DNA of 55,576 bases, taken from positions 1 to 55,576 of the IMG/VR virus record IMGVR_UViG_3300013770_000001; one strand, written 5' to 3'. Position numbers and translations under genes: made by a program. How positions within the stretch are numbered: position 1 is the stretch's first letter; each line of letters opens with the position of its first letter. The notes beneath the pieces were generated by a model, which saw nothing but the letters and a program-made list of their open reading frames with translations, had not been told where the DNA came from and made no database searches. This document shows positions 542-54,355 of the stretch, in pieces. Source of the DNA: a virus. Its lineage: Duplodnaviria > Caudoviricetes.

Positions 542-1135
542 ATGTCTCCCATGGATGCAAACGACCCCGCCAAACTAGTTCGAGCTGAGGGACAGTTCGA
601 CCCGGACAGGTGTCCGAGCATCGCTGGCAACGGGGATCAGTGTATCATGAAGAAGGCACCGGGCTGTGACCACTGTGCGATTCACGGTGCCAAGCAGCAG
701 ATGGCAAAGCAGGGGCAGAAGGCTCTTCAGAACTTCCGAATCACCATGTGGAAGGCGGACGCAGTCGAGGGCTTGAACAGCCCTGACCTGAAGTCTCTCC
801 GCGAAGAGATCGTGCTCGTCCGGATCATGGTCACTCAGAAGTGGGAAGCCTGTAAGGATGACCAAGGGAATCCTTCTGCGGCCAAGTTGATGTTAGCTTC
901 CGGGGCGATCACCGGGATGTTGGTTCAATTGGGAAAACTCGTTGAATCATGTCACAAGATCGAAGCGGCTACTGGTTTTTTGGTAGACAAGACCGACCTC
1001 ATGCGTGTTATGGGGACAATTTTGCAGATTCTGGGAGAGGAGGTAAAAGATCCGGAAGTGTTCGGTCAGATAAGCAAGCGGCTGATGGATACCATCAGCA
1101 AGGAAAATGGAGGAACTGATTATGTCGTTAGCTGA
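542..1135 (+). CDS. Putative terminase small subunit
   Basis: First gene of the virion operon; helical, N-terminal Cys cluster; called from position only. Confidence 0.4.
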   Translation: MSPMDANDPAKLVRAEGQFDPDRCPSIAGNGDQCIMKKAPGCDHCAIHGAKQQMAKQGQKALQNFRITMWKADAVEGLNSPDLKSLREEIVLVRIMVTQKWEACKDDQGNPSAAKLMLASGAITGMLVQLGKLVESCHKIEAATGFLVDKTDLMRVMGTILQILGEEVKDPEVFGQISKRLMDTISKENGGTDYVVS

Positions 1136-33845: not shown

Positions 33846-33918
33846 TGGTGTCTCTGAATCTAGGAATCAAATCTCGCGGAGATTTGATTCTATGTCCTCT
33901 TAGAGTATCCGTATTGAA

Positions 33919-33944
33919 TAACTGAAAATTCCGTTAAAAATTCC
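33919..33944 (-). promoter_or_regulatory. GGAATTTT-N14-GTTA promoter motif driving the leftward operon
   Basis: + strand taac-N17-attcc, the reverse complement of the motif. Confidence 0.6.
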
Positions 33945-34217
33945 GGTAATTCTGTAATTTATTTGTGTCCTTATAAGGGGCCCCTCGCCCGAAAACAGTA
34001 AGCATATAACTGCTTTAGAATGAAGGATTTAACTGTTTTCGATAATAACTGTTTTCTAACAACTGCTGTATCTTTTCTCTTTCCTATTCTTTCCTTTACA
34101 GAAGTAGAAAACAGTAAGTAGTAATTCAGTTAAAGTATTCATTTTAAAAGACTTAGATTTTTGAAAAGAGTAATTCAGTTAGCTACAAATACTGGGCCAA
34201 TTAAATTTATTTTTCAC

Positions 34218-34243
34218 GGAATTTTTTAGTTCCTGCTAGGTTA
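34218..34243 (+). promoter_or_regulatory. GGAATTTT-N14-GTTA promoter motif driving the rightward operon
   Basis: ggaattttttagttcctgctaggtta. Confidence 0.6.
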
Positions 34244-34344
34244 TTCCTTTACCGCATATCTCATAGTGAGAAATGCACCGCCAGAATCGAATCCAGTAGA
34301 TTTGATTCGGCAGATTCATGAATCGTACTGGAGGAATCGTTATT

Positions 34345-35343
34345 ATGGATACCCCAAAGGTAGCCACCGTCAAGCTCGAACAGATTCGGGCCAATCCCGT
34401 CGCACTTCGCGGCGTGAACAAACAGACTGAAGCCTATGAAGGTTTGGTTCAGTCGATGCGGAATCAGGGTTTCTTCGGCGCCATCACGGTGCGCGAACAG
34501 ATTGACCCTGTGACCGGCCAGAAGTATTACGAAATCACCGACGGGTTGCACCGATTCTCCGCAGCCGGCGATGCCGGTCTGAAGGAAATCAACGTCAGCA
34601 TTGTCACGCTGACGCAGGACCAGATGCTCGAAGCGCAGATGTTGATGAATCTGCACACCATCGAGACGAAGGCGTCGGAATACACTGCGCAGTTGAAGCG
34701 GATTCTGTCACGTGACCCGCTGATGACTGTCGCCCAACTCGCGAAGAAGGTCGGCAAGAATCCGACGTGGATCGAAGATCGGCTGTCCCTCAGCAAGATT
34801 TCGAATCCCAAGATCATGGCTCTGATCGACGAAGGCAAGATCAAACTGGGCAATGCTTACGCATTGGCTCGCCTGCCCGAAACCGAACAGACCACGTTCA
34901 CTGACCGTGCGATGACCGAAGAACCGAAGACGTTCGTGCCCGCCGTGAATGAACGCCTGAAGAATCTGCGCGCCGCCGCGCTGTCCGGCAAAGATGCCGC
35001 GCCGCCGACGTTCTCGCCGAATCCGACTCTTCGCTCCCGCAAGGAACTGGTCGATGAAGTGATCGGCACGACCGCCGGCACCGCAGCGAAGGCTCTCATC
35101 GCCGCGTCGAAAGACCAGACCCCTGCCGCGATCTTCGCGCTGGCCGTGAAGTGGGCAATCCATTTGGATACCGCTTCCGTGAATCAGCAGAAGGCCGAAT
35201 GGGATCAGCGCCAAGCTGCCGAAGCGAAAGCCAGGGCCGAACGCAAGGTCGAACAGGAAAAGAAAGCAACCGAGAAAGCCGCAGCAAAGGCAGCAGAAGC
35301 AGCCGGTGCGAAGGTGGACGCTCAGGCTGTCGCCAAGAAGTAG
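34345..35343 (+). CDS. ParB/Spo0J-like protein 1 (ParB-N, HTH, Ala/Lys-rich tail)
   Basis: SMRNQGFFGAITVR..YEITDGLHRF; HTH TVAQLAKKVGKNPTWIEDRLSL; GGAGGA RBS. Confidence 0.8.
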   Translation: MDTPKVATVKLEQIRANPVALRGVNKQTEAYEGLVQSMRNQGFFGAITVREQIDPVTGQKYYEITDGLHRFSAAGDAGLKEINVSIVTLTQDQMLEAQMLMNLHTIETKASEYTAQLKRILSRDPLMTVAQLAKKVGKNPTWIEDRLSLSKISNPKIMALIDEGKIKLGNAYALARLPETEQTTFTDRAMTEEPKTFVPAVNERLKNLRAAALSGKDAAPPTFSPNPTLRSRKELVDEVIGTTAGTAAKALIAASKDQTPAAIFALAVKWAIHLDTASVNQQKAEWDQRQAAEAKARAERKVEQEKKATEKAAAKAAEAAGAKVDAQAVAKK

Positions 35344-35371
35344 AATCACAGGACGCTGTGATTCGCCATGG

Positions 35372-35407
35372 AAAGCGGAAGCCACCCACAAGGAGGTTTC
35401 CGCTTTT
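35372..35407 (+). terminator. Terminator-like hairpin after ParB-like 1
   Basis: aaagcggaagcc...ggtttccgctttt. Confidence 0.55.
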
Positions 35408-35413
35408 CGTGCT

Positions 35414-35477
35414 AGGGCCATGGTGCAATAGTAGCATCCGGTTGCCGGGATGTAGGTATCGAATCCTACTGGCCCTA
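35414..35477 (+). ncRNA. tRNA-like element with collapsed anticodon arm
   Basis: Acceptor AGGGCCA/TGGCCCT, D stem GTGC/GCAT, CCGG-TTG-CCGG arm, T arm GTAGG-TATCGAAT-CCTAC. Confidence 0.6.
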
Positions 35478-35502
35478 TTTAAATCTCAAAAGGAAACAAT
35501 CA

Positions 35503-36207
35503 ATGAGTGAAGCTGAACCAGAAAATCAATTGGCTGAGATTCCAGCATCAACTGGAGCTTTGGCGAAGAATAGCGATGCGCTCTTTGAGCAGATGGCGTC
35601 GCCGGGGGACTTCTTCCCACGTCTGCAACTGATCACAAACAAAAGCAGATACTGCGACCAAGGTGACGGCACTGGTGTCAAGGTGAATCATTTCGGGCTT
35701 TTCCTTGGGAAAGAACCAGAAGACGTGGGTGATCGTCTCGACTGTGTCATACCTGCTGACGCGTGGCGCCCGAAGGCGCTGTACACAGGTGACGGCTCGG
35801 GTGATTCGGAGTTTGTCTGCTCCCATGATCCTGAATCAGAAGCGTTCAGGTCGATTAGGAAACGGTCGGAATTTCCAGATTCGAAATGCCAGTATGGTCC
35901 TGAATTCCTGATTTACCTGCCGGAAAAGAAGAAGTTCGTGACTTTCTTCTGCGGGAGCAAATCCCAGCGCCGCGAAGCCGACAAGTTTCGCGCATTGCAG
36001 GGCGGAGCCGTTACGCTTTCGCCCCGTCGCGCCGAGAAGGGCAAGTTCGTCTGGTACGTCACCGTCGCGCAGAAATGCACGCGGAAGTTGGAACTTCCGA
36101 CGGCGACCGTCTGGAACGAATCCATGAACAAGTTCAGGAATCCTGCAACCGCCGAGACCAAAGAACGCAAGCCGGTTGAAGGCGCAGAAGGGGGACGTGT
36201 TCGTTGA
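35503..36207 (+). CDS. Hypothetical replication protein (possible ssDNA-binding)
   Basis: FPRLQL motif, aromatic/basic beta-rich core; position in the replication block. Confidence 0.45.
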   Translation: MSEAEPENQLAEIPASTGALAKNSDALFEQMASPGDFFPRLQLITNKSRYCDQGDGTGVKVNHFGLFLGKEPEDVGDRLDCVIPADAWRPKALYTGDGSGDSEFVCSHDPESEAFRSIRKRSEFPDSKCQYGPEFLIYLPEKKKFVTFFCGSKSQRREADKFRALQGGAVTLSPRRAEKGKFVWYVTVAQKCTRKLELPTATVWNESMNKFRNPATAETKERKPVEGAEGGRVR

Positions 36208-36710
36208 TTCCACTCTCAGTCTCCCGGCCCGATTGGGAGGCATTTACAAAGGGCTGCAAAACCTGTCTCGGCTATGATCCCATAGCCGAGATAGATGATG
36301 CGGGCCTTAGCAGGCAAGCAGGTGCTTTCCTTGCAACGCTCTCTCTGAGTGATGACCCGCTTGATAGCATCAAGAGCGGGCATCACTCGGCGGAGCATTT
36401 CTTTATTTCTTGCATGTCAGAAGCAACAGGTCTTTGTGTGATTCAGATTCTTGCAGCAACAAGGTTACAGTATCTCACAGTCGCCAAGACGATCAAACCA
36501 TTCGGAATCTTCTCAGGTTCATTCAAGGCGTGGACGGAAGCAATTCTTCATTTCTGCCAGAAAGATTCGTACCCGGAGGCCCGAAAAGAGTTCACTGATG
36601 TGTATCAGGCATTTATGAAAGACAAAGGCTTCATGCAGGTTTTCTCAGGATATAATGAGGTTGAAACTAATGACGGAATCATTCTTCTCCGCAGAGGGCG
36701 CCATTCCTGA
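36204..36710 (+). CDS. Short ThyX-like (Thy1 fold) protein, possibly degenerate
   Basis: GHHSAEHFF and SGSFKAW..I..FC resemble ThyX motifs; RHR motif absent. Confidence 0.35.
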   Translation: MIPLSVSRPDWEAFTKGCKTCLGYDPIAEIDDAGLSRQAGAFLATLSLSDDPLDSIKSGHHSAEHFFISCMSEATGLCVIQILAATRLQYLTVAKTIKPFGIFSGSFKAWTEAILHFCQKDSYPEARKEFTDVYQAFMKDKGFMQVFSGYNEVETNDGIILLRRGRHS

Positions 36711-43956: not shown

Positions 43957-44410
43957 CCTACCGAAGGAATCAGTGGACAAGCCGCGTATGCCGCTTGACA
44001 ACCGGAAGAAGCCGACCGGCTTCCAGCAGATTCAAGGTTTTCTTAATGCCGTCGCGGGCCAGTTGCAAAATCTCCAGAAACAAGTTCTGGAGCTTCAGCA
44101 GGCTCAAGCATTTACCAGTTGCGCCATCGCAGCACTTATGAAGAAAGGAATGGTGACTAGTGACGAAATCCAAGCAGCCTACGAAAGCGCCAAGTCTGAA
44201 GCAGGTAAAGCAAATGCTGAACCAGATGGTGTTCAATCCTCGGGACGTGATGACACCGCTGGGAATCGCAGCGGAGGAGGGGAACCCGAAAGCGTACCGG
44301 ACACATGCAATGATACTACTGCGGGAGTCCCGGCTTCCGTCCCTGTCAGCGGTGACACGCCGCCAGAAGGAGCAGCAAGTGATCCGGCTCCTAGTGCTGG
44401 CTCAGTGTGA
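43949..44410 (+). CDS. Hypothetical coiled-coil protein with run-on tail
   Basis: GGAG RBS; tail overlaps the next ORF. Confidence 0.5.
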   Translation: MNNLPKESVDKPRMPLDNRKKPTGFQQIQGFLNAVAGQLQNLQKQVLELQQAQAFTSCAIAALMKKGMVTSDEIQAAYESAKSEAGKANAEPDGVQSSGRDDTAGNRSGGGEPESVPDTCNDTTAGVPASVPVSGDTPPEGAASDPAPSAGSV

Positions 44411-44540
44411 AGAGTCGGAGATTCCGGAATCAAGCTTCAAGCGCGGAGTTCACGAGGTCGTCTCCGAGAGTAGAGGAGTTCTTTCGGTGGGGCCGAACCC
44501 CGATCTGAGCGAACCGTACAGTCGCCCGGTGCAGGGATGA
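44214..44540 (+). CDS. Hypothetical protein (start uncertain)
   Basis: Stop overlaps the next gene's ATG (ATGA). Confidence 0.4.
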   Translation: MLNQMVFNPRDVMTPLGIAAEEGNPKAYRTHAMILLRESRLPSLSAVTRRQKEQQVIRLLVLAQCEESEIPESSFKRGVHEVVSESRGVLSVGPNPDLSEPYSRPVQG

Positions 44541-44875
44541 TTACCGATCCAGAGTTTCTCCTGCTTCCTCTAGTACGAATCCCGGTTTTAGAAGAACTGG
44601 GATTCGTATCCGGGAAGCGAGACTCAACATGGTATCACGCAGCAGATAATGGCAATCACATTGCGGTTATCTGCTGCGTCCATGTCAGGGAGGTTCAGTT
44701 CGGAATCAAGTTCGCGCTGACATACGATGAGTGTTTCGCTGATTCGGAACTCCTCAAAGCGTATATCCTGCACCTTTTCAAGATGCAGGAATCAACTCTC
44801 GGTCTCAACCCGTTGGAGTATATGAATGGACCCGCTCAGAGTGAAACGAACACGGAAGGATGGCCCGGAGGCTAA
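44537..44875 (+). CDS. Hypothetical protein
   Basis: Intact ORF in the operon. Confidence 0.5.
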   Translation: MITDPEFLLLPLVRIPVLEELGFVSGKRDSTWYHAADNGNHIAVICCVHVREVQFGIKFALTYDECFADSELLKAYILHLFKMQESTLGLNPLEYMNGPAQSETNTEGWPGG

Positions 44876-50129: not shown

Positions 50130-51200
50130 ATGAGCAAGCGACAGTTCGTGCAACTAGCACACAAGTTCGAGCCAACCAAGAACCTGATCGGCGGCTATTT
50201 CGCCTCCGAGAAGCTGGACGGGATGCGCTGTCTATGGGATGGCGGAATCACTCGCGGGCTGCTCAAGACCACAGTGCCGTGGGCGAACACAGCGAAGGAT
50301 GGCCGCTACTTGCAGGATCAGGTCTGCACTGGCCTGTGGTCGCGATACGGACATCCGATTCAGGCACCGGACAGTTGGCTCGACACGCTGCCTCAGATCA
50401 TTCTTGATGGGGAGGTCTTCGACCGGCGGTCCCGGCAACGAATCATGTCTGTCGTCAAGCGGCAGACACCTATTGAGAGCGACTGGAAGGGTATCCAGTT
50501 GCACGTGTTTGACAGCCCGCCGCCGCATGTCCTCTTCGCCGATGGGGAGATACGGGAGACCAACTATAAGAAGTCGTTCTTCGGTGTCCGCTCGTGGGTG
50601 TCCGAGAAGCTGAACAAGCTCACTTGGATGTCTGGTGGCGATTGTCTCATGTTCAAGGATGTGTACAAGAAGCTGAAACTGATTCCGAAATCAGAGAACC
50701 TCGAAATCTTGGAGCAGGTGGAGCTTCCACAAGAGGAAGCGGCAGCTCGCTCTATGGTCGAGCAGATGGCTGATCGAATCTGCGGCGACGGTGGTGAAGG
50801 TGTAATGCTTCGAGCACCGTGCAGCGCGTACTACACAGAACGTGCCCACACGTTGCTCAAGTACAAGCCCTTGCACGATATGGAGGGTGAGATCACCGGC
50901 TACACGACGGGGCGGGAGACGGACCTAGGGTCGAAGCTCCTCGGCAAGATCGGTGCCTTGATTCTGCAGCTTGACAATGGACAGAGACTGGAACTGTCCG
51001 GTCTCACGGATGAAGAACGTCGATTGTGCTCCGGCGGCGAGCAATGGGCATTGGTGAATCCGGAGTGCGAGTTGCCTGCGGAGTTCGAGTCAATCAACTT
51101 CGTTCGCGGTGAACGAGTGACATTCAAGTACCGTGCATTTACAGATGCGGGAATCCCGCAGGAAGCACGCTATTGGAGGAAAGAGGACAACGGGCCTTGA
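50130..51200 (+). CDS. ATP-dependent DNA ligase
   Basis: SEKLDGMR (KxDG), LDGE, VFD, EGVMLR, LLKYK. Confidence 0.9.
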   Translation: MSKRQFVQLAHKFEPTKNLIGGYFASEKLDGMRCLWDGGITRGLLKTTVPWANTAKDGRYLQDQVCTGLWSRYGHPIQAPDSWLDTLPQIILDGEVFDRRSRQRIMSVVKRQTPIESDWKGIQLHVFDSPPPHVLFADGEIRETNYKKSFFGVRSWVSEKLNKLTWMSGGDCLMFKDVYKKLKLIPKSENLEILEQVELPQEEAAARSMVEQMADRICGDGGEGVMLRAPCSAYYTERAHTLLKYKPLHDMEGEITGYTTGRETDLGSKLLGKIGALILQLDNGQRLELSGLTDEERRLCSGGEQWALVNPECELPAEFESINFVRGERVTFKYRAFTDAGIPQEARYWRKEDNGP

Positions 51201-51204
51201 ACCC

Positions 51205-51912
51205 AAGAAATTCGGCCGAGTCCGGAGATTCCAAACTTGGATACGCCGATGAAGCCGCAGGACTACGATCCGCCAATGGTTTGGTGGGGTCTTTCAGATG
51301 ATTAACCGGGTGTGCCTCTGCCGCAAGGTAAGCATACTTCATCCGGTGCTGTGCGGTTGGGAGCAGGGGTTCTTGCCTGCGCCGTAAAAGATGACCGTAA
51401 GGGAGTCTTTCCGCACTTGAATTTCTGGATTCGGTACGCAAACAGGCAAAGCGATCCGCCAATGGTTTGGTGGGGTCTTTCAGATGATTAACCGGGTGAG
51501 CCTCTGCCGCAAGGTAAGCATACTTCATCCGGTGCAATGCGGTTGGGAGCAGGGGGGGGGTTCTTGCCTGCGCCGTAAAAGATGACCGTAAGGGAGTCTT
51601 TCCGCAGTTGAATTTCTGGATTCGGTACGCAAACAGGCAAAGCGATCCGTAAGGATGATTTTGCAGGTTCGAGACCTGTCCGAATCCAGAGGAGTACGCG
51701 TAGCCCAATGTAAGGAGGCACCTCGATAAAAAGAGGAAAAAGTGTGGGTATGCAATCCCATCGCGTATAAGTGGGAGGGAACTTGTTAGTTGAGAATCAG
51801 AGACTGAGGTAGCCGACAGGGTTGCTCCCTGATTCTCGGCAGAATGGTCCATGACTCAACTATACGGGGCGTACGGCTTGTAGCAGCAAGAGTATGTGCG
51901 TCCCTCCCATTG
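51205..51912 (+). ncRNA. Large ornate structured ncRNA (GOLLD/ROOL-class candidate)
   Basis: No credible ORF; many stems and GNRA loops; long-range helix 51771-51780 with 51901-51910. Confidence 0.6.
51266..51649. repeat. Tandem duplication, 186-bp and 191-bp copies
   Basis: Units start cgatccgccaatgg at 51266 and 51452; differ by four substitutions and G-run length (4 vs 9). Confidence 0.9.
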
Positions 51913-52096
51913 AATTTACGGTGGTCGTGGAGCAGATTCTGCATGTAGGGCTTCTCTTAATATCGCAGCGGGCAGACTAGCCGGCTGCCCGTTGAGAGAG
52001 GTTGAATCTGCTCCCGGCCGATTACTTTCTATTCCTGAATCTGTGATTCGGGAATCCGTCCTGAGATCGGTTATCTCAAGTATAAAGGTCGAAGCC

Positions 52097-52531
52097 ATGG
52101 CTACTGTCAAAACGCCAGAAGATTATTTGGACGAGAACGTGCTGACTTGCGACAGGCAACGGGCTGTCGAGGAGCATATCAACGAACTCCGAAATGATCG
52201 AATCTGCAAGCGACGTGAAACCGCAGGCGGGCCAATCCGGGAGTGGATTCAGTCCGACATGCCACTCTTGGTGGGTGTGTGGGTCCGTCTGACGGATAGG
52301 CTAGGTAATGACCAGATCGGAAGGGTGCAGGCCGTGGGGACGCAAGAAGGTAAGAATCTGGGTTACTACCGGATTCTGCTCCCCGATGTTGAGACCGAGA
52401 CGCCGGATGGTCGGAAAGAGCCGACCTATGCCAAGGTGCAGTCCAAGGATGTGGTCATCCTTGGGGCAAATTACTTCCTTGGAACGATCCAGAAGATTCC
52501 GGGCCTCCCCGTCATTGGAAAGGTGGCGTAA
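52097..52531 (+). CDS. Hypothetical protein (SH3/KOW-like beta C-terminus)
   Basis: AAGG RBS before ATG 52097. Confidence 0.5.
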   Translation: MATVKTPEDYLDENVLTCDRQRAVEEHINELRNDRICKRRETAGGPIREWIQSDMPLLVGVWVRLTDRLGNDQIGRVQAVGTQEGKNLGYYRILLPDVETETPDGRKEPTYAKVQSKDVVILGANYFLGTIQKIPGLPVIGKVA

Positions 52532-52845
52532 TGCAGATCCAAGAGTTACTAGCACGTCTCGGTCCCCGGCGGCACATTCGTGTCTCCGGGGATCTTGAAC
52601 GGTTCTACGTGATGAATCAGTTCAAGATCGAGATTGATGTCACATCACTCATAAAGCCCCTGCTCGCCGGTCGGTGCACGCCACCAGAGGTTGCAGACCA
52701 GTTGACCAAGATTCTTGGGTGTTGGATCACGGCCAGTTACTCTGACCTGATCATTCACCCGGAGTCAAGGTCCGGGTGGACGGCCGACGGGCTGGTGTGC
52801 AAGGCAGCACTCTTTCATATCGGAACCTACGAGGATGACCTATGA
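52531..52845 (+). CDS. Hypothetical protein
   Basis: TAATG coupling with the upstream gene. Confidence 0.5.
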   Translation: MQIQELLARLGPRRHIRVSGDLERFYVMNQFKIEIDVTSLIKPLLAGRCTPPEVADQLTKILGCWITASYSDLIIHPESRSGWTADGLVCKAALFHIGTYEDDL

Positions 52846-53282
52846 CTATTGAGAATCCAATTCTCCTCGCATGGGAGAGCGTGAACGAAGCGATGGTGAT
52901 TCTTTCAGCGAGTGAGCGGCTGAAAGAGTCCCCATCTAAGTGGTATGCTTGGCACCGTGACACGCGAATCCTGTCTGGTGCTGCTGCAAACTATCTCCTG
53001 ACCGTTCATCCTATTTTGCGGGAGATCGAACGGCTCGTGGAGGCGGGGCTTCCGATTCCGGAACCGCTTGTGACACAGTTAGTCAAGGGTAGGGAGGTGT
53101 ATGATGGCGGTGAAGTGGAATCGGGAAGTGGCCCGGAAGTTGACGATTTCTCTGCGGAAAGAAATAGCGCGAATCCGTATGCGGAACACGGTCCTCACGC
53201 AGGAGAACAAGGAACTCTCCCTTTCCAACCAAGAGCTAACGGAGTCAAATCTAAAGAAGGACCAAGCGTACCAAAGGCTTAA
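52842..53282 (+). CDS. Hypothetical protein
   Basis: ATGA overlap. Confidence 0.5.
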   Translation: MTIENPILLAWESVNEAMVILSASERLKESPSKWYAWHRDTRILSGAAANYLLTVHPILREIERLVEAGLPIPEPLVTQLVKGREVYDGGEVESGSGPEVDDFSAERNSANPYAEHGPHAGEQGTLPFQPRANGVKSKEGPSVPKA

Positions 53283-53337
53283 GGCCGCTCTCTGCGTGGC
53301 GCAGGGTGCACTGAGGGAGATTCAATGTGACGAATAA
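53101..53337 (+). CDS. Small coiled-coil protein
   Basis: GGAGGT RBS; overlaps the tail of the previous ORF. Confidence 0.45.
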   Translation: MMAVKWNREVARKLTISLRKEIARIRMRNTVLTQENKELSLSNQELTESNLKKDQAYQRLKAALCVAQGALREIQCDE

Positions 53338-53668
53338 AGCCACTTCTGGCAATAGTCGCAAGGCGCTCATCTTCTTAATCGAAGATGACGATGTGCTGAC
53401 CAAGGGGCAGAAGCTGACTGGACGGCACCTTCTCAACACGCTTCCGCTGAGGAATCTTCCGTCTTTCGTCAGCGTGGATGCGATGGTCGAAGGGTTCAGA
53501 CTCATTTGGGTGGGGGTGACAATCAAGATTCAGGGTGATGGAAAGTACACTTTCAAGCACCTGACACCTGAAGGGATGTTAGTGTGCAGCGGCGGGCCTC
53601 AAGAAGGTCGGTTGCCCACGGCGTGGCGAAAAGCAATTGCCCAGTGTTGTGAAGGGAGAGAATCATGA
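53327..53668 (+). CDS. Hypothetical protein
   Basis: GGGAG RBS, GTG start. Confidence 0.5.
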   Translation: MTNKATSGNSRKALIFLIEDDDVLTKGQKLTGRHLLNTLPLRNLPSFVSVDAMVEGFRLIWVGVTIKIQGDGKYTFKHLTPEGMLVCSGGPQEGRLPTAWRKAIAQCCEGRES

Positions 53669-54152: not shown

Positions 54153-54233
54153 GTCACACTTCTCCGAGGCCGATGACTCGTTGGATGACGACATATTCAA
54201 ACAAGTGGGGCCATAGTTAAATGAGTCTTTATT

Positions 54234-54304
54234 GGGGGTATGGCGTAGGGGTAACGTGGCTGACTTGCACTCAGCAGTCCCCGGTTCGAATCCGGGTACC
54301 TCCA
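54234..54304 (+). tRNA. tRNA-Ala(UGC)
   Basis: Acceptor GGGGGTA/TACCTCC with G3:U70 and A73 alanine identity elements; anticodon arm GCTGA-CTTGCAC-TCAGC; T arm CCCGG-TTCGAAT-CCGGG; CCA not encoded. Confidence 0.9.
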
Positions 54305-54355
54305 ATTTAAAGGCAAAAGTTCCGAGTCACCCAAATGCTGACCAAGAGGTTCTAT

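Follow-up and report, generated by a model that had tools for sequence, protein, structure and literature searches.

The tRNA-like elements of mascRNA/MALAT1 are cleavage signals for RNase P and RNase Z, and the tRNA cluster of phage T4 encodes two stable RNAs, species 1 and 2, that are not tRNAs. These systems are cited as analogies to the phage locus described here, and relatedness to them is not claimed. In plant mitochondria, t-elements are non-canonical tRNA-like substrates of RNase P and RNase Z that set mRNA ends (PMC1920247). The YrlA Y RNAs of bacteria and phages are non-coding RNAs with a D arm, a T arm and an acceptor-like stem open to tRNA enzymes (PMC4201824). Among the large RNAs, GOLLD (RF02032) combines a variable 5′ region with a conserved 3′ region and sometimes carries tRNAs in its linker (PMC12286853).

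The window analysed here is the whole 55,576-nucleotide stretch of a tailed-phage contig from soil, and the record to which it belongs is ~60% complete. A crude estimate of ORF coverage gives ~96% for the window, and its largest gene-free stretch is an interval of 896 nt (the runner-up, at 33846–34265, measures 420 nt). The interval is flanked upstream by a ligase gene, the identity of which was confirmed by family matches, and downstream by an ORFan gene at 52097–52531. An earlier note, made from the letters alone, had placed an ornate non-coding RNA at 51205–51912; that segment is indeed structured and non-coding, but the stretch continues to 52096. The features discussed below are as follows. 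R3 is a covariance model for tRNA that was trained on 18 real tRNAs, namely the tRNA-Ala of the window and 17 tRNAs of related phages; its E-values, like those of the single-sequence model R2 introduced below, are rough.

51201–52096, + strand: the whole non-coding interval, lying between the ligase stop codon (51198–51200) and the next start codon (ATG at 52097) in the ORF list
51211–51263, + strand: leader segment, with predicted pairing to 52058–52093 (28 bp in five pieces) in the MFE fold
51266–51451, + strand: copy 1 of a tandem repeat unit (186 nt), from the repeat search; its core is rich in hairpins, including GCAA and GUAA loops
51428–51458, + strand: duplicated 5′ half of tRNA-like module 1, from its position in the repeat register
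51429–51481, + strand: junction of copies 1 and 2, spanned by a 53-nt contig of run X1 at depth 12
51452–51642, + strand: copy 2 of the repeat unit, 191 nt, from the repeat search and alignment to copy 1
51619–51689, + strand: tRNA-like module 1, matched by R3 over its full length (30.0 bits, E 1.2e-7)
51694–51771, + strand: tRNA-like module 2, a degenerate cloverleaf (R3, 24.5 bits, E 5.5e-6)
51770–51911, + strand: domain D, a three-way junction closed by an 11-bp helix and bearing one short hairpin and one long arm with bulges
51922–52020, + strand: domain E, a bulged hairpin of ~100 nt with an 11-bp perfect stem (51929–51939/52004–52014)
52031–52055, + strand: hairpin F, 11 bp with a 3-nt loop, just 5′ of the next gene
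35414–35479: third tRNA-like module (R3, 29.6 bits), with CCGG-UUG-CCGG replacing the anticodon arm

The interval is non-coding: each of the six frames has a score typical of out-of-frame sequence, and its ORFs belong to no family and lack real homologs. Codon-usage scores are negative in every frame, at −0.09 to −0.37 bits per codon, where in-frame genes reach +0.27. The one long open frame, 237 aa on the − strand at 51139–51852, has no Pfam or PHROG family, and a search of 1.84 billion representatives with its product gave just three weak multi-stretch matches (E between 5e-7 and 3e-5). Real genes have codon scores of +0.065 or more; this frame, at −0.03, lacks the codon usage of the phage. 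The view that no credible ORF exists was right in substance. A simple scan of 50900–52300 revealed zero promoter-like and zero terminator-like sites, which fits read-through transcription.

Like GOLLD and ROOL (RF03087), the interval is large, highly structured, non-coding, phage-borne and near tRNA sequence. It differs from both in having no covariance-model match, in consisting mostly of serial local domains and in that half of its 5′ part is a recent duplication. A GOLLD-like context is present (a tailed phage, a nearby tRNA-Ala as the earlier note had pointed out, and internal tRNA-like modules), yet context does not define the family. Direct covariance-model searches with GOLLD and with ROOL gave no match at E ≤ 10, and both families were also absent from the two Rfam scans; the 14 control genomes were likewise without ROOL, so the direct ROOL search is weak alone and is complemented by the independently negative scans. 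At gathering scores the Rfam scan returned the tRNA-Ala alone and nothing in the interval, and the permissive scan (E ≤ 10) gave two junk matches, leuA-Halobacteria at 19 bits (cut-off 47.9) and SNORD94 at 15.4 (cut-off 60). The other families of Rfam 15, including OLE, HEARO, raiA, tmRNA, group I/II introns and riboswitches, gave no covariance-model match. Membership in GOLLD, ROOL, OLE or any other Rfam family is not supported by covariance-model searches, either at the gathering score or at E ≤ 10, and size, tRNA context and dense hairpins are insufficient for a GOLLD or ROOL assignment.

Pairing in the interval is above chance and specific to the + strand. The + strand MFE of 51201–52100 is −372.1 kcal/mol, compared with −312.9 ± 6.4 in 20 shuffles (z −9.3), in agreement with the dense pairing noticed earlier; on the − strand it is −293.5 kcal/mol (z −3.7). 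In a separate run with 12 shuffles the interval had a z of −6.7, and 11 other 900-nt windows ranged from +1.4 to −5.3. When every 900-nt running span of the window is compared, the interval ranks first both in GC-adjusted + strand stability and in strand asymmetry. The separately closed domains each outscore their own shuffles, pointing to a modular predicted fold. According to the model, the fold would be mostly a string of locally closed modules, and an integrated multi-junction fold is not obvious.

The leader is by itself unstructured (z −0.3). Its predicted pairing with the tail would enclose the entire interval and would also mask the weak ribosome-binding region in front of the ORFan gene. 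In the MFE, UUCGGCC (51211–51217) is paired with GGUCGAA (52087–52093), located 4 nt upstream of the start codon, with a probability of 0.87 in the 900-nt context. The pair probability of leader and tail overall is 0.76–0.87 in the 900-nt context and 0.11 in an 1100-nt context, in which 100 nt of flank are added per side. The cofold gain of −15.3 kcal/mol was equalled by 0/561 and 3/561 control segment pairs; the segments were picked after the fold was seen, so that the pairing is suggestive only.

Over half of the supposed single RNA of ~700 nt (377 of 708 nt) is occupied by a tandem duplication, which the earlier note missed. The two units are 98% identical, and the duplication is recent and near-exact. 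Copy 2 differs from copy 1 by the substitutions T51313>A51499, T51350>A51536, G51351>A51537 and C51416>G51607 and by a 5-nt indel in a G-run (five extra G after 51551); in three of the four substitutions the copy-2 base is A, and three of the four break pairs of copy 1. G51351 and C51416, for example, pair in the copy-1 MFE, whereas copy 2 presents A and G at these positions, which do not pair. The core of the copy-1 unit folds with a z of −2.6 (3/200 shuffles as good; − strand z −0.6). A 7-nt sequence, CGATCCG, is found at all three unit boundaries (51266–51272, 51452–51458 and 51643–51649). Tandem Repeats Finder left the 186-nt duplication unreported, but a general repeat search did detect it. 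An independent contig set, from soil run X1, supports the duplication in DNA: besides the contig across the junction, a 193-nt contig covers copy 1 at depth 15.8, with flanks at 8.7–8.9. The segment 51482–51619 is without any X1 contig, so that the copy-2 variants rest on a single witness; X2 and X3, two other runs from that study, gave no contig for the interval. The duplicated half of module 1 comprises the acceptor 5′ strand, the D arm and the start of the short arm, and its own 3′ half is absent. The 11-nt TCTGGATTCGG (51424–51434) is complementary to 51680–51690, and so is its copy at 51615–51625.

Modules 1 and 2 are tRNA-derived, with full-length covariance-model alignments well above background. 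The acceptor stem of module 1, extendable to 11 bp (51615–51625/51680–51690), is accompanied by U8-A9, a D arm with GG and the T arm GCAGG-UUCGAGA-CCUGU, and a UCC-GUAA-GGA hairpin stands in place of the anticodon arm. The fold of this module has a z of −4.7, with 0/200 shuffles as good, and the T-loop-like cagg-ttcgaga-cctg previously pointed out is present at 51664–51678; the cc-gcaa-gg and cc-gtaa-gg hairpins listed with it are likewise found in the sequence. In module 2 (z −3.0) the acceptor stem has 7 bp and is accompanied by UA, the D arm lacks GG, a further arm, CCUC-GAUAAAAA-GAGG, has an 8-nt loop containing UAA, and the T arm is GUGGG-UAUGCAAU-CCCAU. This module has lost the D-loop GG and the T-loop U55/C56 together. 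The tgggtat-gcaa-tccca element, reported as a GNRA-capped hairpin, is really this 5-bp GUGGG/CCCAU stem with an 8-nt loop, a T-arm remnant of a degenerate tRNA, and the pairing of tacgcg (51695–51700) with cgcgta (51762–51767), which is present, constitutes the module 2 acceptor stem. Two of the helices described as ornate are therefore mere stems of tRNA-derived cloverleaves.

In the R3 search of 5.6 kb, the next match after modules 1 and 2 scored 7.4 bits. Over the whole window, with filters off and E ≤ 1, R3 gave exactly four matches: the tRNA-Ala at 61.9 bits, modules 1 and 2 with unchanged scores, and the module at 35414–35479. The stems are paired in all modules while the loops differ, and a 7-nt anticodon loop is absent from all three. 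The presence of a second anticodon-less module elsewhere (35414–35479) implies that the module 1 design is not a one-off decay. Both modules were missed by ARAGORN and by the Rfam tRNA model, and with loops of GUAA (4 nt) and GAUAAAAA (8 nt) neither is taken for a functional tRNA; the sole ARAGORN call in the window is the tRNA-Ala at 54233–54305 (Rfam tRNA match at 54234–54304). R2, a single-sequence model of 51691–52030, matched the tRNA-Leu(taa) of related phage L014 (28.6 bits, E 1.4e-8); of 50 related records this was the only one with a tRNA(UAA) match, which corresponds exactly to module 2. This tRNA-Leu(taa) is itself called by ARAGORN and has a D arm near-identical to that of module 2, which is related to it.

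Phage tRNA genes and pseudogenes resemble the modules in their homologous cloverleaf and in lying within a few kb of a ligase gene (at 16 of 71 related loci, the sequence retrieved around the ligase gene includes tRNA genes of at least 50 bits). The modules differ from them in going undetected by ARAGORN and by the Rfam tRNA model and in having no 7-nt anticodon loop. With the t-elements (PMC1920247) the modules share non-canonical cloverleaves, a well-kept T arm and a position between genes inside long transcripts, which in the phage are presumed, neither being functional tRNAs, and GGTTCGAGACC of module 1 is one position off the t-element motif GGTTCRANYCC given there. The t-elements belong to another kingdom and genome type, however, the phage modules swap the anticodon arm for a mini-hairpin, and cleavage is here only predicted. 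Similar to YrlA, the interval is non-coding with a D arm, a T arm and an acceptor-like stem. In YrlA, by contrast, the domain resembling a tRNA lies inside the RNA, and a closed stem-loop takes the place of the acceptor stem (PMC4201824); in the phage, each module builds its acceptor stem from its own 5′ and 3′ ends. The window has no Ro60/TROVE gene (no TROVE match in this ~60% complete record; two control genomes matched) and no Rfam match to such RNAs, and a Y RNA identity was rejected. A tmRNA was rejected as well, with no ARAGORN or Rfam call and acceptor strands merely 54 nt apart. An attP site with a tRNA 3′ end was also rejected: no tyrosine integrase was found, a search of 185,579 species genomes for a 22-mer of the T arm and acceptor strand gave no exact match, and 39 degenerate-pattern matches included none inside a tRNA.

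Domains D and E are the best-folding parts of the interval and are not tRNA-like. In domain D the MFE and the centroid coincide at −64.4 kcal/mol (z −5.7, 0/200 shuffles as good; − strand −51.1, z −4.0). Domain E reaches −59.0 kcal/mol (z −5.6, 0/200 shuffles as good; − strand −43.3, z −4.2); no T-run follows its hairpin, and the terminator scan gave 0 sites.

Searches for homologs extended over several collections. Comparison of 51201–52100 with 50,697 phage records by blastn returned nothing, exact 25- and 26-nt patterns of the interval had no match in IMG/VR, and the use of ligase or terminase as a single-protein anchor there led to no homologous locus. At 71 ligase-anchored loci, 50 of which were searched as whole records and the remaining 21 as loci only, the best blastn E was 1.9 and nhmmer found nothing at E ≤ 10; BLAST against the 50 whole records gave matches of 14–32 nt only, the best on the T arm. 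Model R1 (51452–51695) matched 0/50 records at E ≤ 1. Over the window and the 21 other loci it gave, two self-matches aside, a 32-nt match (13.8 bits, E 0.025) at the same coordinates of L055 and L056, and a weaker match at window 854–875 (8.2 bits, E 1.2). For R2, the L014 tRNA was the sole match across related records and loci. The nearest relative of the ligase is 51% identical and the downstream gene matched no homolog but itself, which indicates that the searched collections hold no close kin of this phage. With no homolog beyond the tRNA-like modules, the repeat unit, D and E have no covariation backing. In relatives, a compact tRNA gene with short flanks replaces the interval. Large ORF-free gaps in L012, L018, L050, L031, L059 and L057 have no sequence in common with the interval and no Rfam family. 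TRNA-shaped elements of 140 nt in L070 and L006 display no detectable similarity to each other or to the window.

Our favoured reading, at a probability of about one half, is that of a tRNA island that has been remodelled, rather than a single ornate RNA, with tRNA-like modules that may serve as signals for RNA processing. Its core would be the two adjacent + strand modules (51619–51689 and 51694–51771), the first retaining an acceptor stem, a D arm and a canonical-looking T arm and the second all four stems with non-tRNA loops. The 186-nt hairpin-rich segment ending in the 5′ half of module 1 would have been duplicated in tandem via the CGATCCG repeat, with the two long, very stable hairpin domains D and E placed downstream of the modules. 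We infer transcription, cleavage and any benefit to the phage: the interval would be transcribed together with the rightward replication-gene array, and host RNase P on the 5′ side and RNase Z or RNase E on the 3′ side could recognise the acceptor/T-arm stacks. Cleavage would then separate the ligase part of the long transcript from that of the genes downstream, in the manner of plant mitochondrial t-elements, and the flanking hairpins would shield the new 3′ and 5′ ends. The search of sequencing runs found the interval sequence in no RNA run. Several points argue against processing. The acceptor/T stack of module 1 can extend to 16 bp, not 12, and may ill suit RNase P; ARAGORN and the Rfam tRNA model do not detect the modules, so that enzyme recognition is not assured; and the processing model leaves unexplained why so compact a genome should keep ~550 nt of additional structured sequence. 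The leader/tail pairing and the extreme strand asymmetry over 900 nt fit one large RNA at least as well.

The interval might instead be vestigial DNA of no function to the phage, made up of a pair of tRNA pseudogenes, a duplication by slippage and residual hairpins, its structure signal being inherited from former tRNA genes and terminators. Module 2 suits such decay, with its missing D-loop GG and T-loop U55/C56 and its 8-nt ‘anticodon’ loop, as do the partnerless half module borne by copy 1, the disruption of copy-1 pairs by three of the four copy-2 substitutions, and an interval that has no homolog in all searches and corresponds in relatives to a compact tRNA gene with short flanks. Yet tailed-phage genomes are compact, and this is by far the biggest gap in a window ~96% covered by ORFs; the stems of three separate tRNA-like modules are all still paired, a clean swap of anticodon arm for mini-hairpin occurs twice in one phage, and the best-folding parts, D and E, are not tRNA-like. 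We consider vestigial DNA a somewhat unlikely explanation. Another rival is a large RNA of a new class, ~0.85 kb long, closed by leader and tail, with a duplicated variable 5′ part, tRNA-like modules in a central linker and a stable 3′ part, an architecture analogous and not homologous to that of GOLLD. GOLLD has a less conserved 5′ and a conserved 3′ region, a location near tRNA islands and a linker sometimes with phage tRNAs (PMC12286853); the first rank of the interval in + strand stability and strand asymmetry, and the 28-bp leader/tail pairing matched by just 0/561 and 3/561 control pairs, point the same way. Set against these are the missing match to GOLLD, ROOL or any other Rfam family, a predicted fold that, the closing helix aside, resembles beads on a string, the fall of the closing-helix probability to 0.11 when 100 nt of flank per side are included, the lack of homologs and hence of covariation, and an internal duplication of 98% identity that is unlike a finely tuned fold. 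Such a large RNA seems unlikely to us. Slightly less likely still is its specific form, in which 51211–52093 would be a single ~0.85-kb RNA of an undescribed class with a 28-bp 5′/3′ helix, an expandable duplicated 5′ domain, two tRNA mimics, anticodon-less or degenerate, in the central linker and a rigid 3′ domain; if true, a soil phage would have arrived independently at a GOLLD-like solution, perhaps one that displays tRNA-shaped modules to host factors.

The UUCGGCC/GGUCGAA pairing and its probability of 0.87 would also suit a long cis-acting leader of the ORFan gene, in which 51211–51217 masks the ribosome-binding region. This is improbable, as the pairing probability depends on context, no riboswitch or leader family matches, a loop of 880 nt between the strands is unlikely for a regulator, and the downstream gene offers no homologs for comparison. 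Scarcely credible is a protein gene on the − strand at 51139–51852, or a diversity-generating retroelement with the copies as template and variable repeats: 237 codons are open and A is the copy-2 base in three of four substitutions, but the frame has no Pfam/PHROG family, three weak matches and a codon score of −0.03, the window encodes no reverse transcriptase, and the copies abut directly and sit in no target gene. A retroelement or retron was in any case rejected by the absence of RVT_1 from the window, the non-coding nature of the copies and the presence of only four substitutions.

Returning to the remodelled tRNA island, cutting of the modules by host tRNA-processing enzymes would amount to a phage ‘tRNA punctuation’ in which anticodon-less tRNA mimics divide long transcripts. 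Such punctuation is known from plant mitochondria (PMC1920247), and a limited literature survey found no phage example. Three modules in a 55-kb contig, together with the odd tRNA-shaped elements in relatives, suggest that this class escapes the standard tRNA finders when phages are annotated.

The helix joining gtgggaggga (51771–51780) and tccctcccat (51901–51910) is in place at the coordinates given in the earlier note, with 10 bp including one G-U. Two further helices listed there, gagaatcag (51792–51800)/ctgattctc (51829–51837) and agttgag (51788–51794)/ctcaact (51855–51861), are both present but not fully compatible, since both use 51792–51794 and cannot both form in full. The agccg (51811–51815) and cggct (51874–51878) segments of the putative pseudoknot both exist. 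Further downstream, a 72-nt piece with hairpin F has a z of −2.1 (10/200 shuffles as good), and the 19-nt motif of this hairpin has two 3-mismatch look-alikes elsewhere in the window, one of them inside a gene.

The gene-free interval 51201-52096 (896 nt), bounded by the end of the ligase gene at 51200 and the ATG of the next gene at 52097, is the biggest gap of the window, the second biggest measuring 420 nt. It is read here as a remodelled tRNA island and not as one ornate RNA. The earlier note had placed an ornate RNA of about 700 nt at 51205-51912; its position after the ligase gene holds, while the span proposed was too short. The window (IMG/VR record, 55,576 bases) is estimated at about 60% of the virus genome and carries a tailed-phage gene set comprising terminase, portal, major head protein, tape measure, primase, helicase, DNA polymerase and a ParB-like protein. 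The nearest relative of its ligase displays 51% identity, and searches of IMG/VR with terminase and ligase as queries found no close kin; judged by sequence comparison, the phage appears to stand alone among the collections searched. The features discussed below are as follows, where z is folding strength against shuffled sequence and R3 is a covariance model built from 18 genuine tRNAs (the tRNA-Ala of the window and 17 tRNAs of related loci).

Features of the interval and its surroundings
35414-35479, + strand: third tRNA-like module; R3 29.6 bits
50130-51200: ATP-dependent DNA ligase gene (Pfam OB domain and PHROG 114)
Leader of the interval: z -0.3
51266-51451: repeat unit, copy 1; core z -2.6
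51452-51642: repeat unit, copy 2; core z -2.0
51619-51689, + strand: tRNA-like module 1; R3 30.0 bits, z -4.7
51694-51771, + strand: tRNA-like module 2; R3 24.5 bits, z -3.0
51770-51911: domain D; z -5.7
51922-52020: domain E; z -5.6
Last 72 nt of the interval: z -2.1
52097: start ATG of the next gene, an ORFan of 144 aa whose sole database match is its own sequence
54234-54304: tRNA-Ala; R3 61.9 bits

The interval is non-coding, as the earlier note had held. By log-odds of codon usage, with 13 long genes as training set, genes in frame reach +0.27 bits per codon (minimum +0.065) and small downstream genes outside the training set +0.10 to +0.20, while the interval yields -0.09 to -0.37 over its six frames, resembling out-of-frame sequence. 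The single long ORF (- strand, 51139-51852, 237 aa) has a codon score of -0.03 and no Pfam or PHROG family; against 1.84 billion representative proteins it gave three weak multi-stretch matches (E 5e-7 to 3e-5), none at 1e-10. No family was found at E<=1 for the nine smaller ORFs.

The + strand of the interval is structured beyond chance. A 900-nt piece folds at -372.1 kcal/mol versus -312.9 +/- 6.4 in shuffles (z -9.3) and its reverse strand at -293.5 kcal/mol (z -3.7); a separate shuffle run gave z -6.7, with 11 other 900-nt windows of the phage between +1.4 and -5.3. The dense pairing originally noticed is thereby borne out. In a GC-corrected scan of both strands (200-nt windows, 50-nt step, averaged across 900-nt spans), the interval takes first place in the window on two counts, + strand stability and strand asymmetry; the asymmetry is -17.5 kcal/mol per 200 nt, with a genome mean of -2.55. 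The signal is uneven across its parts, as the z values listed reveal. Strong hairpins are not unique to the interval, since other spots of the phage fold better locally, e.g. 44530-44679 (z -9.8). Within this 150-nt piece, two long, nearly perfect, adjoining hairpins of about 17 bp and 14+5 bp (44573-44679, + strand) form the strongest local fold in the window on both strands; the ORF list has 44537-44875 and 44160-44540 at this place. A cluster of long hairpins at 36210-36440 (+ strand, z -4.2), with a 14-bp perfect stem near 36262-36295, lies where ORFs 35503-36207 and 36204-36710 meet, and the small downstream ORFan genes at 52201-53500 also display above-average + strand folding (running residual -12.3; z -5.3 for the 900-nt window starting at 52601).

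Membership of the GOLLD or ROOL families, suggested at first from size and context, found no backing: direct searches with RF02032 and RF03087 gave no match at E<=10, and a full Rfam 15 scan of the window returned the tRNA-Ala as its single match. Permissive filters at E<=10 added only two junk matches in the interval, far under their cut-offs, and ARAGORN found neither tRNA nor tmRNA there. No TROVE/Ro60, reverse transcriptase or tyrosine integrase gene was found in the window.

R3 revealed a different affinity. Run over the whole window with filters off at E<=1, it gave exactly four matches, the tRNA-Ala and the three modules; in a 5.6-kb search the next match scored 7.4 bits, a clear gap in bit score, the E-values of the model being rough owing to quick calibration. 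Module 1 retains U8-A9, a GG-bearing D arm, the T arm GCAGG-UUCGAGA-CCUGU and an acceptor stem that can lengthen to 11 perfect pairs, its anticodon arm being shrunk to UCC-GUAA-GGA. All four stems are kept in module 2, with a T loop of 8 nt, a D loop lacking GG and the 8-nt loop GAUAAAAA. The T-loop-like element, the tacgcg/cgcgta helix and the tgggtat-gcaa-tccca hairpin that had been assigned to the ornate RNA are indeed present and belong to these two modules. The third module lies 16 kb from these two, in the spacer that separates ORFs 34318-35343 and 35503-36207. Its plain MFE structure is a cloverleaf whose acceptor stem has 7 bp and whose T arm carries an 8-nt loop; a D arm is present, and the mini-hairpin CCGG-UUG-CCGG stands where the anticodon arm belongs. 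Neither ARAGORN nor Rfam calls this module. Upstream of it (35343-35412) lie a hairpin and a terminator-like hairpin with a trailing T-run. None of the three modules can serve as a decoding tRNA. No tRNA in 185,579 species genomes is the source of the segment of module 1 that comprises its T arm and acceptor strand: this segment had no exact match there, and none of 39 degenerate matches fell within a tRNA.

More than half of the RNA first proposed, 377 of 708 nt, is a tandem duplication that had been missed. The two copies differ by four substitutions and a 5-nt G-run indel, and the heptamer CGATCCG present at all three unit boundaries points to a putative microhomology-mediated origin. G51351 and C51416, paired in the copy-1 fold, are A and G in copy 2 and do not pair, a difference given no weight here. 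Each unit ends in 31 nt that form the 5' half of module 1, so copy 1 holds a partnerless half module. Only one public sequencing run, a soil metagenome that is possibly the source sample, contains the sequence. Its Logan contigs, made with a different assembler, agree with the duplication: a 193-nt unit contig has a depth of 15.8, about twice the 8.7-8.9 of the contigs that flank it, and the copy 1/copy 2 junction is bridged by a 53-nt contig of depth 12. The four copy-2 differences have no second witness, because no contig carries copy-2 variants (none covers 51482-51619, the stretch with the 9-G run and all four substitutions); the two copies may really be the same, or copy number may vary.

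Sequence like the interval was absent from all 71 related loci, fetched by ligase alignment, and the whole records of 50 of these contained only short T-arm matches. R1, a covariance model that covers unit 2 and module 1, found nothing in the 50 records; on the window and the other 21 loci it recovered both copies, with otherwise one 13.8-bit, 32-nt match in L055/L056 and one of 8.2 bits elsewhere in the window. R2, a model of 51691-52030, had one match in the 50 records (28.6 bits), a tRNA-Leu(taa) that ARAGORN calls in locus L014 and that is located in a short intergenic spacer. The alignment covers 51694-51768 with a 7-bp acceptor stem, UA, D arm, anticodon-type arm and T arm, the D arm being nearly identical to that of L014. 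Genes for tRNAs (>=50 bits) occur within the fetched ligase flanks of 16 of the 71 loci, often for a tRNA-Leu(taa) that follows the ligase stop at a distance of 1.4-4 kb; the interval is therefore an expanded, remodelled form of a tRNA site common in this ligase-related group.

We consider it most likely, with moderate confidence, that the tRNA-like modules act as cleavage signals for host tRNA-processing enzymes. A long rightward transcript would run through the interval (no promoter-like or terminator-like site was found at 50900-52300), host enzymes would cut it at the modules and the hairpins on either side would shield the resulting ends. The same working principle is described for the t-elements of plant mitochondria, tRNA-like cleavage signals for tRNA-processing enzymes, in PMC1920247. 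The main rival explanation is that the interval is purely vestigial. A third reading, one RNA of about 0.85 kb, draws on 28 bp of pairing predicted between 51211-51263 and 52058-52093, equalled by 0/561 and 3/561 control pairs, on the extreme strand asymmetry over the whole span and on GOLLD, which at times carries tRNAs in its linker according to PMC12286853. However, the probability of this leader/tail helix falls from about 0.8 to 0.11 with 100 nt of flank per side, its segments were chosen after the fold was seen, and no homolog was found for a covariation test.

Several related loci display unusual intergenic sequence. ORF-free stretches of 640-920 nt, without tRNA, Rfam family or sequence shared with the interval, occur at L012 9755-10677, L050 7704-8513, L018 7611-8355, L059 7873-8564 and L031 9754-10397. 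L070 (7472-7612) and L006 (7053-7196) each carry an intergenic element of some 140 nt, located 1-1.5 kb downstream of ligase, in which a D-arm-like hairpin and a canonical T arm accompany an acceptor-like stem and an inserted, long middle arm; ARAGORN calls neither element, nhmmer detects no similarity between the two, the L006 element has only a 14.5-bit tmRNA fragment match in Rfam and the 3' part of the L070 element scores 18.2 bits with R3. Full-length tRNA-model matches were obtained in L068 and L071 (1985-2123 and 2324-2444; 38-40 bits) and at L050 4575-4717 (24 bits); ARAGORN, run on L068 and L050 only, made no call, and these sequences of 121-143 nt are tRNA-shaped with insertions of 45-70 nt.
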